Assembly (NCBI GenBank): GCA_020849795.1
Contig: JADZFR010000022.1
Span: forward strand, 62,879-126,878
Source: Planctomycetota bacterium
Lineage (GTDB): Bacteria > Planctomycetota > UBA8742 > UBA2392
Length of the DNA stretch: 64,000 nt
Direction of reading: 5' to 3'
The notes under the pieces: generated by a model
Database searches by the model: none
The model's input: the letters and a program-made list of their open reading frames with translations, nothing else
Told to the model about the DNA's origin: nothing
Part shown: positions 57,121 to 62,192 of the stretch, in pieces
Layout of the letters: every line of letters begins with the position of its first letter
Numbering within the stretch: the first letter of the stretch is position 1
Program-made: the position numbers and the translations under genes

Positions 57121-57726
57121 TTACTTTGACTTGTCTTCTTCCAGGTCCTCGCCCAGCTCGCGGGCGATGTCGCGATCCAGTTCTTCGCGACTCTTCTTCT
57201 TTCGGTCATCCGTTGATACGCCGATCATCTGGTCGATCTCGGCGTCCGTGACCAGCGTTTCGCCCGTGGCGCTGTCGGCTTCAAACAGGCTTTCCTTCGT
57301 CATGTCCAGAAACAGATCCATACGCTGGCCCATGGTCTCGGCCTGCATCATGGCGTGCTCGAAGTTGCGTTGCGTGCTCTCCAGGTCGGTCGTTTTGTAG
57401 ATCTCGTTGATGCTCTTGCTGACGACACCCATGCTTTCGGCGAACACGGCAAAGCTCTCTGCCTGGTTCTTCATCTGGTAGGCGGCTTCAATCGTCAACA
57501 TCTGCCGCTCAAGCATGCGGCGCTGAGCCGTTGTGGCCTTCAGCGACTTGCGAATGAAAGCAAGCTGGTCGTTTGCGCCCATGCGCCCGGCCTTGCGCGC
57601 CTTTTCAAGCCACTCTTCCTCGGATTTGTTGAGTTCGCGCACCTGACGCTTCATGCGCTGGATGCCCTTCTTGATCTCCATGTCGCGCGCGATGCGACGC
57701 TCTTCTTTGCTTTTGAAGATTCCCAT
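57121..57726 (-). CDS. ESCRT-III family protein (CHMP2/Vps24/Snf7-like), paralogue C
   Basis: ATG 57726 is preceded by AGGAGA. N-terminus MGIFKSK. The helical-hairpin region AGRMGANDQLAFIRKSLKATTAQRRMLERQMLTIEAAYQMKNQAESFAVFAESMGVVSKSINEIYKTTDLESTQRNFEHAMMQAETMGQRMDLFLDM aligns by eye to CHMP2A (AKQGQMDAVRIMAKDLVRTRRY...MAQAMKGVTKAMGTMNRQLKLPQIQKIMMEFERQAEIMDMKEEMMND). Acidic tail with ELDRDIARELGEDL. Confidence 0.7.
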   Translation of the reverse strand: MGIFKSKEERRIARDMEIKKGIQRMKRQVRELNKSEEEWLEKARKAGRMGANDQLAFIRKSLKATTAQRRMLERQMLTIEAAYQMKNQAESFAVFAESMGVVSKSINEIYKTTDLESTQRNFEHAMMQAETMGQRMDLFLDMTKESLFEADSATGETLVTDAEIDQMIGVSTDDRKKKSREELDRDIARELGEDLEEDKSK

Positions 57727-57743
57727 GGGTCTCCTATGAGCGG

Positions 57744-57776
57744 CAATGATCAATGTTCAACGCTCAATGATCAATG
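57744..57776. repeat. Exact 12-bp direct repeat caatgatcaatg x2, 21-bp period, immediately upstream of ESCRT-III paralogue C
   Basis: Copies at 57744-57755 and 57765-57776 are identical, with spacer ttcaacgct. They lie 18-50 nt upstream of ATG 57726 (minus strand). Confidence 0.8.
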
Positions 57777-57850
57777 GCAAGTACCCGGATTTGGCGATCA
57801 CTAGCCTGTTGCGGACCTTTGACAACAAATCATGGAACATGGCCGCGCGA

Positions 57851-58660
57851 TCACTCCACCACGTGGTAGTTCGCCTCGCCTGCAGCCACTCGCTTGCGTG
57901 TATGGGCGGTCATGCGCGCCGATTTGCGCTGCGCGGCCTCGATAAACTCGCGCGCGGCGCGCAGCTTGCGCTTGCCAAGGTACGCGCAGAGAAAGCGGGC
58001 CTTGTCGGTGGCGGTGACCGCACCGGGCGCCGAGTGCAGCAGTGCGGCAACATCTTTCACCCGCCAGCGATGCGTCACGCGCTTGCGAATGTCCGCGCGA
58101 TTGAGGTCGGTCACAAACAGGCGGTCGTCTGCGCCCACCAATATGTGAACCAGGTAGAAGTCGCGATGGTTGACACCGCCGTCGTGCATGGTGCGCAGGA
58201 TGCGTCCCAACTGCGCCGCGATGCGCTGCCGCCGCGCCGGTGAAATTTCAGTCGTGCGCAGCAGCGCCTGCAGATTTGTGGCGGCCGGTAAGCCGACCGT
58301 AACCAGCGCCGCCCGAAGCACCCGGGCGCCGTCGCGTTCTTCGATGCACGCAGCCGGTTGCGGGGCGTCGATTCCCAGCTTGTACAAACGTCGCAGGACC
58401 GCCCACTCGCGCTGCACTGGTGAATCAAACTGCTCGGCGAACAATCCGCTCCAGAACGGGTCCGGAGCAGGCTGTTTGTAGCGCTTGATAAAGTAGGACT
58501 TGCCGGTGGGGGACTCCATGCGCAGTGTCTGGCGCTCGGCAAGCTTGGCCTTTACCACGCTCAAGTCGCGTCGCAGGAAGATCGCGTCCAGCGAAAGCAG
58601 GTCCAGCGCCTCAAGTTCAGGCCGCAACGAATCTTCTACCAGTAGTCGTGTCTCAGTCAT
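57851..58660 (-). CDS. Lipopolysaccharide-kinase (Kdo/WaaP/InaA) family protein kinase-fold protein
   Basis: YFIKRY, REWAVLRRL..LGI, catalytic-loop-like GGVNHRDFYLVHILV, FVTDLNR, RWRVKDVAALL. This is the PF06293-type pattern. Confidence 0.75.
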   Translation of the reverse strand: MTETRLLVEDSLRPELEALDLLSLDAIFLRRDLSVVKAKLAERQTLRMESPTGKSYFIKRYKQPAPDPFWSGLFAEQFDSPVQREWAVLRRLYKLGIDAPQPAACIEERDGARVLRAALVTVGLPAATNLQALLRTTEISPARRQRIAAQLGRILRTMHDGGVNHRDFYLVHILVGADDRLFVTDLNRADIRKRVTHRWRVKDVAALLHSAPGAVTATDKARFLCAYLGKRKLRAAREFIEAAQRKSARMTAHTRKRVAAGEANYHVVE

Positions 58661-59994: not shown

Positions 59995-60612
59995 TCAAAC
60001 TGCCCCTTCCTCGGATTCGAGCTTGTGTTTCAGCTCGGCTTCGGTTTTCAGGGCTTCGTCAAAGTTGCCTGCTTCTTCGGCTTCGTTGATCGTGTCGATC
60101 TCGGACAAGAAGCGCTCTTTCTCAGGGTCCTGGTCCTCAAACTCGCCGTCAATCTCCAGCCCGATGTCTTCCAGCGTGGCATTCAGCTCATCCATGTACG
60201 CCTGCTCGTCGATCTGTTGCAGCGCGAGCTTGGCATCCAAGCCGCTTGTGCGAATGCGTTGCAGGAGTTTGTTCACGCCGTCTTTGTCTTTGCGTTTTTC
60301 CAGTCGCTCGAGGCCGCGGATGTACTTCTTGAGGGCAATGCCCTCGAGGTTGCTGACTTTGGCAGTGCGGCGGCTGAACGCGAAATCGTACTTGATCGCC
60401 TTGAGTTCTTCCCAGAGGTAGTCGACCTCGATCTGGTTGCCCTCGCGGCGAGCGGCCTTGATCTGCTCAATCAAGGTGCCCTGTTTGGCAGAACTCTTGC
60501 GCAGCTCCATGAAGTACTTGCGGCGGTCGCGTTCAACCTCGCGCAGTTTCACCTTCAACTTGCGCAGGTCGATCCGCCCGCCGAACAACATGCTGAAAAA
60601 GTTCTGTGGCAT
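59995..60612 (-). CDS. ESCRT-III superfamily protein (Snf7-like), paralogue B
   Basis: ATG 60612 is preceded by GGAGGG. N-terminus MPQNFFSMLFGG. About 150 aa of basic helical hairpin, then an acidic C-terminal third (DIGLEIDGEFEDQDPEKERFLSEID...EAELKHKLESEE). Confidence 0.65.
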   Translation of the reverse strand: MPQNFFSMLFGGRIDLRKLKVKLREVERDRRKYFMELRKSSAKQGTLIEQIKAARREGNQIEVDYLWEELKAIKYDFAFSRRTAKVSNLEGIALKKYIRGLERLEKRKDKDGVNKLLQRIRTSGLDAKLALQQIDEQAYMDELNATLEDIGLEIDGEFEDQDPEKERFLSEIDTINEAEEAGNFDEALKTEAELKHKLESEEGAV

Positions 60613-60735
60613 TGACCCTCCGGACTTCGTGCGGGGCTTCTACCCCGACTGACCTTTGCCGCATGCCGCTTACAGTGTGTGGTCTGAATGCCCTGCTGTG
60701 TGCTACGAACCTTGCCCGCGTGTGTAACAGCGTCG

Positions 60736-61416
60736 CTACTCAAGCTCTGGTTTCTGTTTCATCTGCTTTTCGTCGTGTTTCGAAGCTTCCTTGCGTTCAT
60801 GCTCGGCTTGCATCAACTCCGCCTCGATGTCCGCCAGTTCCTTGTCCATGTCTGGCTTTTCTGCCCGCGGCTTCTCTCCAAGAATCTCCTTCTCCAGCGT
60901 GCGCAGTTCTTCTTTGTCCTTGGCGGTCAGCACGTCTTCGCGGCTTTGCGTCACGCCTTCGCCGGCGTGCACGGCTTCGCGGTACTTTTCCATGCCTTCT
61001 TCGAAATCGAGCATCACGCGCTCAACCACCGACTGCTCAATCCCCCGAAGGTCCATGGCCTCCATGGCCTGGATTTTGCCCACCAGGTTCAGGTGCAGTT
61101 CGATGTTCTTGTTCAGGATGTCGGCCTTGAGCTTCAGGCTTTCCATTTGCGTTCGCGTGCGCTTGATCTGCAGCAGCACAAACTCTTTCTCGCGGTCGCC
61201 GACGCGTCCGGACTTGATGTTCTCGATGCTGGCGCGCTCAGACAATTCCAGCCGCGCCAGCTCTTGCCTTGTTTTGCGCAGTTCGACCTCGTTCTGGGTG
61301 ATCAGGTCGTCGAGATGCTCGAGCATCTCGCGTGTGCTGTGGGCATCGCGAATCACCTGCTCGGCTTCGCCGGCTTGGCCCTTGATCATGTTTTTGATGC
61401 GGTCGAGCAGGCTCAT
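60736..61416 (-). CDS. ESCRT-III superfamily protein (Snf7/PspA-like), paralogue A
   Basis: N-terminal amphipathic MSLLDRIKNMIKG (PspA/Snf7 helix-0-like). Long hairpin (REKEFVLLQIKRTRTQMESLKLKADILNKNIELHLNLVGKIQAMEAMDLRG). Charged tail ELADIEAELMQ. The start overlaps the upstream stop (TGATG). Confidence 0.55.
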   Translation of the reverse strand: MSLLDRIKNMIKGQAGEAEQVIRDAHSTREMLEHLDDLITQNEVELRKTRQELARLELSERASIENIKSGRVGDREKEFVLLQIKRTRTQMESLKLKADILNKNIELHLNLVGKIQAMEAMDLRGIEQSVVERVMLDFEEGMEKYREAVHAGEGVTQSREDVLTAKDKEELRTLEKEILGEKPRAEKPDMDKELADIEAELMQAEHERKEASKHDEKQMKQKPELE

Positions 61417-62192
61417 CAGGCCCTCATGCTTTCGAATCGGTCACGCTGAATAATCAGGTCGCCGCCGACTTCCTTGACGCCAAGGCCGGGTGTGCGCTCG
61501 GCATACAGGATCGCGCGGTCTGTGACCAGATCTTTGCCTACGGCGACGCGTTGGGCAAGGTCGTCTATCAGCATAAAGCCGCCCGGTTCGCGCAGCTCAT
61601 GGGCCGCCGAAAGCGCCGAGTCAACCCGCGCGACCTTCTGGTCCACGGGCTCAGGGTCGAACAGGTTTTCGAACAACGCCGGCAGAATCGCCCCATCCCT
61701 TGGCGCCGTGACGGCCCAACCCGGATCGGCGTATTCAATCAACGCCCCTCGCCAGTTCGTGCCCCCGGATAGCGCCCGCAACACCTCGTCGGTGTGGCCC
61801 GCCACCTGGTCTTCTCGCGCACCGGCAAACCCGATGACGAAGTAGATGTCCGGCCGCAGAGGCGCCAATGCCCAGCGCGCAGTTTCCTGGATTGCCTCAG
61901 CCGTGAATCGGCGTTCTGCGTGGCCGAAGTCGAGCACCACACAGACTTTGACCGACGCCAGGCCCAGCATCGGCTTGTGAAGCAGGCCAATCGATTCACG
62001 GCGGATGAACGGCCCCTTGCCGCCGGGGGAAAGGTCACCTTGTCGGAAACTGCGGCGCGACACGCGGTTAGGGTCGAAATCGTACAGCGACCCTTCGCCC
62101 GGGTGCGGCAACATGCGTTGCCGGACAATTCGGCTCTCAAGCCCCGAAAACAGGCTTTGCATCGCAGACACGGCTGTGGCGCGCTCAAGCAT
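61416..62192 (-). CDS. Unknown protein leading the ESCRT-like cluster
   Basis: ATG 62192 is preceded by AAGGGG. No family recognised. The C-terminal ~70 aa (GGFMLIDDLAQRVAVGKDLVTDRAILYAERTPGLGVKEVGGDLIIQRD) has a winged-helix-like pattern. The track ORF extension to 62306 would run into the divergent ABC gene. Confidence 0.5.
   Translation of the reverse strand: MLERATAVSAMQSLFSGLESRIVRQRMLPHPGEGSLYDFDPNRVSRRSFRQGDLSPGGKGPFIRRESIGLLHKPMLGLASVKVCVVLDFGHAERRFTAEAIQETARWALAPLRPDIYFVIGFAGAREDQVAGHTDEVLRALSGGTNWRGALIEYADPGWAVTAPRDGAILPALFENLFDPEPVDQKVARVDSALSAAHELREPGGFMLIDDLAQRVAVGKDLVTDRAILYAERTPGLGVKEVGGDLIIQRDRFESMRA

Follow-up and report, generated by a model that had tools for sequence, protein, structure and literature searches.

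Introduction

[quoted passage not shown] Several bacterial phyla, Planctomycetes among them, have also been reported to have acquired VPS4-like ATPases by transfer, a TPR-6TM protein having taken the place of snf7 (PMC11237479, text S2.2). Ravi et al. 2024 (PMC11237479) separately note associations of either PspA or a divergent Snf7 with an AAA ATPase of two cassettes. Planctomycetes themselves have elaborate inner-membrane invaginations and no FtsZ, and the mechanism of their division is unknown (PMC8382908). Here we describe a cluster of six genes, g1 to g6, that brings together three ESCRT-III-like proteins and a Vps4-like MIT-AAA ATPase in a 64,000-nucleotide stretch of a Planctomycetota genome (assembly GCA_020849795.1, contig JADZFR010000022.1, positions 62,879 to 126,878; hereafter the window, with positions counted from its first letter).

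The six consecutive open reading frames (ORFs), called on the window, lie head to tail on the minus strand at 57121-62306, in the order g1, ESCRT-III-like (g2), ESCRT-III-like (g3), ATPase (g4), kinase (g5), ESCRT-III-like (g6). An earlier note on this DNA had read them as a complete filament-plus-remodeller module with a kinase and a leader protein, a reading that our results support at the level of homology and linkage. We document below what the cluster is made of, to which families its proteins are homologous and how tightly its genes are linked, a linkage conserved across many planctomycete lineages; how the module would work is a matter of analogy with established ESCRT-III/Vps4 and Cdv knowledge. 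In the full-text literature on Planctomycetes or Planctomycetota with ESCRT or Vps4, for which journal coverage is incomplete, we found no description of this operon. What is novel here is an ESCRT-III/Vps4-type module in Bacteria, with additions of its own (g1, kinases and extra MIT proteins) and a modified ATPase.

Results

The ESCRT-III-like proteins

The families of g2 (60736-61416; 226 aa), g3 (59995-60612; 205 aa) and g6 (57121-57726; 201 aa from the start MGIFKSK, which is kept in all homologues, with the ORF extending to 57753) were compared by hhalign with 12 eukaryotic ESCRT-III proteins and with E. coli PspA and Synechocystis Vipp1, each reference being used only after an exact match under its expected name. 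Reversed reference alignments, in which composition and heptad character are preserved, served as controls. All three families matched the ESCRT-III references: g6 at 96.3% (E 1.8e-9, 141 columns), g3 (profile A5) at 92.7% (E 4.2e-7, 151 columns from residue 4) and g2 (profile A7) at 89.9% (E 1.7e-6, 132 columns), as against at most 0.2% for the reversed controls of the three families (0.1% for g2). For comparison, the known remote pair of PspA/Vipp1 and ESCRT-III scored 88.5% in the same set-up. Matches of PspA/Vipp1 to the cluster families came to 0.5% for g6, 0.3-0.4% for g3 and 10-14% for g2, the last confined to the N-terminal helix.

Pfam and structure-database searches agree with this assignment. 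The Snf7 family (PF03357) was matched by 14 of 20 g6 homologues (best E 6.5e-8) and by 3 of 72 g2 homologues (best E 7.4e-5), among which it was the sole family matched by more than one member; PF04012 (PspA/IM30) gave no match in any family scan. Among the proteins in PDB, g6 matched CHMP3 (E 0.0026) and the g6 family profile CHMP2A (E 0.017). The question of Snf7 versus PspA, for which the earlier note had proposed profile searches, was thus answered in favor of the Snf7 type, PspA/Vipp1 staying at or below 14%. The outcome that the same note had set against its own reading, namely that these proteins score as generic coiled coils only, did not occur, given the Snf7 matches and the hhalign values of 90-96% versus controls of 0.2% or less.

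The description of g2, g3 and g6 as three paralogous proteins of about 200 aa stands at one level and falls at another. Pairwise BLASTP comparisons of the three found zero similarity, and therefore paralogy is not readable directly from the sequences; at the profile level they are related, the g2 family matching the g3 family at 87% (E 4e-6). When the g2 and g3 profiles were compared with that of the g6 family, neither gave a significant match, the link running only through the broader ESCRT-III reference profile. When the references were divided into an A-type (Vps2/Vps24/CHMP1-3) and a B-type (Snf7/CHMP4/5/6/Vps20) profile, g6 scored 95.7% with the former versus 21.5% with the latter, g2 scored 91.3% with the B-type versus 49.9% with the A-type, and g3 leaned to the A-type. 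We treat this as a lead, drawn from small reference sets and no phylogeny, that g2 may be B-type-like and g6 A-type-like, with g3 perhaps closer to the A-type.

The predicted structure of g3 (AlphaFold, 34 sequences, pLDDT, the predicted local distance difference test score, of 76.7) contains helices at 5-10, 16-56, 60-106, 110-122, 125-130, 136-149, 163-180 and 184-200, that is, a short alpha0, two long helices that pair as a hairpin (16-56, 60-106) and a further four to five short ones, which is the ESCRT-III order. About 20 of the top 50 PDB entries that Foldseek listed for this model, at non-significant E-values, fall within the ESCRT-III superfamily, among them Vipp1, CHMP3, CHMP2A/3, CHMP1B, CdvB/CdvB2, PspA and Loki CHMP4-7. 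The layout of a basic hairpin followed by an acidic tail, which had been claimed for all three proteins, holds for g3 and g6, with net charges of +10/-16 and +9/-12 in the N-terminal and C-terminal halves (compare +13/-21 in CHMP3 and +9/-28 in Snf7), and fails for g2, which at 0/-12 resembles Vipp1. All three carry ESCRT-III-like hydrophobic motifs at the N-terminus (MGIFKSK in g6, FFSMLFG in g3 and MSLLDRIKNMIKG in g2). At its other end g6 has a conserved acidic helix, LDRDIARELGEDL, in which D184, I187 and L191 are invariant or nearly so, and its homologues share a C-terminal D-x-x-I-x-x-x-L helix (followed by I or L) with the spacing of a type 1 MIT-interacting motif (MIM1). This pattern suggests that the g6 tail may carry a MIM motif.

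The MIT-AAA ATPase

The product of g4 (58685-59923; 412 aa) begins with an MIT-like three-helix domain (residues ~1-80). A linker rich in Pro and Gly follows, then a single AAA cassette of the classical kind (E 1.9e-34 with Pfam AAA) and a C-terminal helix. Walker A (164-171), Walker B (D229/E230), sensor 1 and the pore loop SKYFGES are intact, and the second region of homology (SRH) reads SRFEKQILIPLP. The N-terminal helices are modelled by AlphaFold at 4-23, 27-45 and 51-80 with pLDDT of ~90. Among natural proteins in PDB, the N-terminal profile matches VPS4/SKD1 MIT domains best, along the whole domain (residues 6-75) and with E-values from 3e-4 to 0.012 (1wr0 at 3e-4 and 2jqh at 7e-4, along with 4u7y, 2cpt, 1yxr and 2jq9); designed TPR repeat proteins rank above the MIT domains in the same search, due to summed repeat matches. 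Compared by hhalign with five MIT references, the g4 N-terminus scored 62% (E 7.5e-5) versus 0.2% for the reversed control, and the Pfam MIT model gave sub-threshold matches to two of ten family members (E 0.059 and 0.17). At the opposite end, 9 of the 18 proteins of the family that were scanned matched Vps4_C (PF09336), at best with E 4e-6; g4 of the window itself reaches E 0.033 over model positions 21-57 of 61.

Several features place the cassette with Vps4, katanin and spastin. The SRH of g4 shows the two-residue deletion and the RFEK-I-IPLP motif that these three have in common, in a place where Cdc48, PAN and FtsH have LRPGR. Searched against PDB, the whole cassette scored 164 bits with katanin versus 148 bits with the D2 module of Cdc48, and the C-terminal module 50 bits with spastin, 47.6 with katanin and 46 with FIGL1 versus 38 and 32 with p97 D2 and D1; identity to g4 is 38% for katanin, 36% for spastin and 34-35% for Vps4. 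A neighbor-joining (NJ) tree of 75 AAA modules with 200 bootstraps included VPS4A, VPS4B, yeast Vps4, katanin, spastin, p97, PAN and FtsH, all taken by exact look-up, as well as Cdc48-like modules from the fetched loci; archaeal CdvC/Vps4 was not in the tree. With 93% support, this tree separated the g4 family, two alphaproteobacterial homologues, a second ATPase of the related loci (AAA2, see below), Vps4, katanin and spastin from Cdc48 D1 and D2, PAN and the FtsH-like modules. Grouping with FtsH or Cdc48 and an N-terminus unlike MIT, named in the earlier note as the outcome that would contradict it, was accordingly not what we observed, given this split and the VPS4 MIT matches. On its sequence, g4 can be classed as a Vps4-like MIT-AAA ATPase of the Vps4/katanin/spastin kind, not as a demonstrated Vps4 orthologue.

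The Foldseek list for g4, which mixes FIGL1, p97, spastin, Vps4 and katanin, does not discriminate. When species-representative genomes were scanned with the alignment of the ATPase, the generic GPPGTGKT pattern dominated the outcome, and most of the loci returned were of the Cdc48 and FtsH type.

Conserved gene linkage in related loci

Scanning metagenomes with the g6 family yielded 80 loci, in which ORFs were called and searched with hidden Markov models (HMMs) built from the window proteins; related loci are given below by L number. An AAA gene directly adjoins the Snf7-like (g6) gene in 26 of the 27 loci with both flanks, and of the 23 loci whose sequence continues for 5 kb or more upstream of the g6 homologue, 19 have homologues of g1, g2 and g3 there on the same strand. 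Because the linkage is kept in these proportions, the arrangement is not a matter of chance, and the suggestion of the earlier note to look for the same gene order elsewhere proved fruitful. The families are of limited size, with 376 matches for g6, 112 for g3 and 123 cluster representatives for g2.

The recurring layouts are variations on the same theme: g1-g2-g3-(355-aa protein)-ATPase-(kinase or 151-aa protein)-g6; g1-g2-g3a-g3b-ATPase-g6-AAA2; (MerR-)g1-g2-g3-g6-AAA2; and kinase-g6-AAA2-kinase. AAA2 is a second, shorter ATPase (~365-405 aa) that follows the g6 homologue in most of the distant loci (L094:9108-10250, L099:4399-5520, L102:8650-9750, L002:8989-10206 and others), some of which have AAA2 only and no g4-type gene. 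Its N-terminus matches the MIT-like profile of g4 at 95.7%. In the SRH it follows Cdc48 and PAN (LRPGR), and it has KWVGE as pore loop. In relatives at ~70% ATPase identity, a protein of 353-395 aa that has no ATPase domain is encoded between g3 and the ATPase (L004:5894-6961, L005:4604-5665, L086:4296-5483, L087:788-1849 and L090:4672-5763); it carries two MIT-like domains, at ~22-89 and 285-349, separated by a long low-complexity linker.

In more distantly related loci, cluster genes have Ser/Thr kinases of the Hanks type as direct neighbors, and some of these kinases also carry RDD or zinc-ribbon domains. One related cluster encodes, after AAA2, a 633-aa protein with a faint Band_7/SPFH match (L002:10203-12104), followed by a 301-aa protein and a Pkinase-RDD membrane kinase; SPFH proteins have been linked to archaeal ESCRT and bacterial PspA loci (PMC10936438).

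Homologues of g4 also occur in Alphaproteobacteria. Two metagenome-assembled genomes (MAGs) of this class encode MIT-AAA proteins (L006:7971-9212 and L007:7989-9224) with 38% identity by tblastn, or 48% over the AAA module, that join the g4 family with 100% bootstrap support. A Pseudomonadota MAG encodes a two-cassette AAA protein (L083:8001-9407), both modules of which fall with the g4 family and not with Cdc48 in the NJ tree, at a weak 56%.

The leader protein and the kinase

The first gene of the cluster, g1 (61416-62192), encodes a soluble protein of 258 aa from its ATG, with no transmembrane segment evident, in an ORF that reaches back to a GTG at 62306. It matches no family in Pfam, NCBIfam or PADLOC, and gives no signal with the ESCRT-III, PspA and MIT profiles. 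An ESCRT-II/Vps25-like winged helix, which we also considered, gave no signal, the score of 0.3% obtained with an unvalidated VPS25 sequence being equal to that of the reversed control. In 4 of 15 relatives, g1 is fused to an N-terminal MerR helix-turn-helix (HTH) domain (L002:3918-5429, L099:960-2432, L149 and L135). Fusions of g1 with g2 were found as well (L156:2308-3795, L158:5268-6743, L159:3357-5207 and L160:1900-3753).

The product of g5 (57851-58660; 269 aa) is a protein-kinase-like enzyme of the Kdo/WaaP family, scoring 98.7 bits with PF06293 at a cut-off of 21.3 and possessing the HRD motif. The family assignment of the earlier note is thereby upheld; the enzyme does not reach the equivalog level of NCBIfam, with 110.9 bits for RfaP versus a cut-off of 170 and 63.7 for KdkA versus 142. 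The gene is present in the close clade (L001, L166-L169).

Cluster layout, flanks and assembly

The six-gene row on the minus strand and the TGATG in which the stop of the 258-aa gene overlaps the start of g2 are both present in the sequence as earlier described; the one amendment to the gene list is that the third small protein comes after the kinase, apart from the other two. The intergenic gaps measure 123 nt (g2-g3), 71 nt (g3-g4), 24 nt (g4-g5) and 124 nt (g5-g6), and the terminator scan detected no terminator-like site on the minus strand within the cluster. The flanking genes, which encode an ABC exporter, an AHSA1-like protein, MurD, a PEGA protein and a tandem-Usp protein, bear out the bacterial surroundings that had been recognized from murD, the exporter and the PEGA gene. 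The exporter is MsbA-like (ABC_membrane plus ABC_tran), lies on the plus strand at 62265-64000, divergent from g1, and runs off the end of the window; the same divergent gene is found in all close relatives (L001:3948-5792, L004:1700-3529). The content of guanine plus cytosine (GC) is even, at ~0.61 throughout the window, and neither a tRNA gene nor an Rfam family at gathering score was detected anywhere in the 64 kb.

Protein records that match the window proteins exactly or almost exactly carry the annotation 'Planctomycetes bacterium' or 'Planctomycetota bacterium', and the exact g3 sequence occurs on at least 23 contigs of independent assemblies. One of these, a 4.12 Mb contig of GCA_016712285.1, contains the same cluster with the same gene order and called lengths, independent gene calls in other assemblies give 258-226-205-412-269/274-201 aa, and in a relative whose ATPase is 79% identical, a 3.09 Mb contig carries all six of these genes among the same neighbors. 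A bacterial/archaeal chimera, against which the earlier note had advised checking, is excluded because the same cluster recurs on multi-megabase planctomycete contigs and in many independent assemblies. The strain of GCA_016712285.1, otherwise near-identical, has an additional gene between g3 and the ATPase, which codes for a PDDEXK_3 protein of 136 aa (L167:6619-7029); this insertion is missing from the window and from three other assemblies.

Discussion

The homology of g2, g3, g4 and g6 and the conserved linkage of their genes lead us to consider it likely that this operon-like planctomycete cluster is a genuine ESCRT-III plus MIT-AAA module, which works broadly as follows. The subunits would bind the cytoplasmic face of the inner membrane via their N-terminal hydrophobic or amphipathic motifs, and their basic helical hairpins would co-polymerize into composite, membrane-bending filaments. 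A hexamer of the ATPase would then dock, via its MIT domain, on the acidic C-terminal helices of the subunits, the most likely target being the A-type-like g6, whose homologues directly adjoin an AAA gene in 26 of 27 loci. By threading subunits through its pore (pore loop KYFG) and extracting them, the ATPase could drive filament turnover, constriction or disassembly. The kinase, in whose place relatives have Ser/Thr kinases, probably controls assembly through phosphorylation, and g1 is probably a nucleator or adaptor. The MIT-MIM logic of this scheme draws support from the g6 helix with MIM1-like spacing and from the multiplication of MIT domains in related loci. Candidate processes are membrane repair, scission of vesicles or invaginations, and division.

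A number of observations weigh against this interpretation. Taken alone, the window g6 falls just short of the Pfam Snf7 cut-off (E 0.048, model positions 5-134 of 171), Pfam offers no relevant match to g2 or g3 of the window, and HMM searches of PDB sequences with the g2 and g3 family profiles return nothing relevant. In the structural comparison that the earlier note had proposed, the g3 model has the ESCRT-III helix order and an ESCRT-III-rich list of matches, but all of its Foldseek E-values against PDB are 0.5 or higher, so that none is significant. The AAA core of g4 is badly modelled (AlphaFold, 18-sequence alignment, pLDDT below 50). Branching inside the Vps4/katanin/spastin group has supports of 17-57% and leaves g4 without a resolved sister; the phylogeny thus sets the ATPase apart from Cdc48, PAN and FtsH and does not fix its position within the meiotic-type group. 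The claim that g4 is Vps4-like is favored by the MIT-like domain, the SRH deletion, the Vps4_C matches and the 93% grouping, but has to accommodate two departures from Vps4. First, g4 is missing the beta-domain, the insertion in the small AAA subdomain of Vps4: the segment from the lid helices to the C-terminal helix is short, and the C-terminal module can be aligned over its full length with spastin, katanin and FIGL1. This insertion, which binds Vta1, is a feature of eukaryotic Vps4, and spastin, katanin and FIGL1 are without it. Second, where Vps4, katanin and spastin have R-R, the g4 family has an invariant S289-R290, that is, one arginine finger. Moreover, three full-length g4 homologues stand alone, with no ESCRT-III-like gene within ~5 kb (the two alphaproteobacterial proteins, L006 and L007, and a planctomycete one, L003:7001-8284). 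Finally, the kinase is inconstant, being replaced by an unrelated 151-aa protein in L004/L005 at 70% ATPase identity, and g5 could be a lipopolysaccharide-core kinase that merely sits there.

The alternative that survives best is one of envelope-stress membrane maintenance equivalent to PspA/Vipp1, in which the proteins would patch the inner membrane and the ATPase would only recycle the coat, with no scission. Membrane repair is the proposed ancestral role of the ESCRT-III superfamily (PMC7619361), the N-terminus of g2 is like helix alpha0 of PspA/Vipp1 and gives the weak N-terminal PspA profile match (10-14%), and several associated genes would fit a stress response, namely the neighboring Usp gene and ABC exporter, the SPFH/Band_7-like gene in one related cluster, and the MerR HTH, of a stress-regulator type, on some g1 homologues. 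However, g2, g3 and g6 all match the Snf7 type far better than PspA/Vipp1, the cluster is missing PspB/C/F, LiaI/F and Toastrack, and the combination of several paralogues with an MIT-AAA is the active remodelling layout of archaea and eukaryotes. We regard this alternative as possible, albeit on balance unlikely.

More ambitious versions of the proposed module are less secure. It is doubtful, although worth stating, that this FtsZ-less planctomycete lineage has a complete ESCRT-III/Vps4-type scission machine of reverse topology, which would consist of A-type and B-type subunits with either one MIT-AAA ATPase or two, a cofactor carrying two MIT domains, and Ser/Thr kinases as regulators. Such a machine would act in cytokinesis, in budding or in pinching off the internal membrane invaginations typical of the phylum, and its split into A and B subunits would be older than, or exchanged with, the archaeal/eukaryotic one; to each of these points the same doubt applies. 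Rather improbable, in our judgement, is the more specific proposal of a cytokinesis or bud-neck scission machine in the manner of Cdv, with an ESCRT-III ring at the site of division that is remodelled step by step by the ATPase and timed by the kinase. The lack of ftsZ and the unknown mechanism of division in planctomycetes (PMC8382908) leave room for it, several ESCRT-III paralogues occur with a Vps4-like ATPase as in Cdv, the cluster adjoins murD in this clade, and the association with kinases is compatible with cell-cycle control. Nevertheless, the families are small (376 g6 matches, 112 g3 matches and 123 g2 cluster representatives), the adjacency to murD is confined to the close clade, and no positioning factor was recognized, no search having been aimed at CdvA. 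The named matches are all uncultured MAGs, and a general planctomycete divisome is excluded because no cultured planctomycete genus is among the matches listed.

Very unlikely, in comparison, is a coiled-coil artefact, whereby the ATPase would be a general unfolding or severing AAA protein (katanin/spastin-like or Cdc48-like) with a different substrate and the small proteins unrelated adaptors. This account would explain the lack of pairwise similarity among g2, g3 and g6, the absence of a significant PDB match for g2 and g3 and of a significant Foldseek match for the g3 model, the scores of the ATPase, which put katanin and spastin as near to it as Vps4, and the existence of solo homologues. 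It does not sit well with reversed controls of at most 0.2% versus 90-96% for the real comparisons, with alignments that begin at the N-terminal motif and stay in register for 130-150 columns, with Pfam Snf7 as the sole family matched by many homologues, or with a Snf7-like gene adjoining the AAA gene in 26 of 27 loci. A mobile anti-phage defence or other accessory island built from AAA and kinase parts is hardly credible: PADLOC matches the AAA and kinase proteins to the IetA, TRIP13 and PD-T4-6 models and one strain has the PDDEXK_3 gene between g3 and the ATPase, but those matches are generic and g1, g2, g3 and g6 have none, GC content is uniform, the chromosomal neighborhood is stable in relatives down to 70% ATPase identity, and inspection of the flanks showed neither an integrase or transposase nor repeat boundaries.

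The locus and its relatives keep Snf7-type paralogues together with Vps4-like MIT-AAA ATPases in Planctomycetota. If the ESCRT-III plus MIT-AAA module works as proposed, it would provide a bacterial model for the mechanics of ESCRT-III and Vps4, a candidate for membrane scission or division in planctomycetes, and a new data point on the origin of ESCRT, whether ancient or transferred between domains. If the scission machine also proved real, ESCRT with Vps4 would be no archaeal invention confined to Archaea and Eukarya.

Comparison with known systems

Among the described systems, archaeal ESCRT (CdvB with CdvC/Vps4, or Asgard ESCRT-IIIA/IIIB with Vps4) shares with the cluster several Snf7-type paralogues encoded beside a single-cassette MIT-AAA, acidic tails, N-terminal membrane motifs and, it appears, the combination of A-like and B-like subunits. 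The cluster differs in that its host is a bacterium, in the addition of g1 and kinases and in the single arginine finger of its ATPase, and no CdvA, ESCRT-I/II or ubiquitin genes were recognized in it, again with no search aimed at CdvA. The likeness to eukaryotic ESCRT-III/Vps4 (CHMP/Snf7 with VPS4A/B) consists in the profile homology of g2, g3 and g6, in an MIT domain nearest to those of VPS4, and in the SRH deletion, pore loop and C-terminal helix of g4; the double-MIT protein of related loci is, in its layout, reminiscent of Vta1/LIP5. Unlike eukaryotic Vps4, g4 lacks the beta-domain insertion and is ~34% identical to it (38% to katanin), and no upstream ESCRT-0/I/II was recognized in the cluster.

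Katanin, spastin and fidgetin resemble g4 in combining an MIT-type N-terminus with one AAA cassette, in the SRH deletion and in the absence of the beta-domain, and give the highest per-domain scores. These enzymes sever microtubules, whereas the cluster has no tubulin-like partner and the g4 gene has ESCRT-III-like neighbors. With PspA/Vipp1 (IM30) the cluster proteins share the superfamily, the bacterial domain, solubility, an amphipathic N-terminus and, as proposed for them, action on the inner membrane; they differ in being of the Snf7 type, in having an MIT-AAA partner instead of PspF/PspBC and in numbering three paralogues per operon. The bacterial VPS4-like operons described previously (PMC11237479) likewise place a Vps4-like ATPase in bacteria, and the solo ATPases of L003, L006 and L007 may be of the 'transferred VPS4-like' type of Ravi et al. 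2024. In those operons snf7 is reported to have been displaced, whereas the cluster described here has kept three Snf7-type genes.

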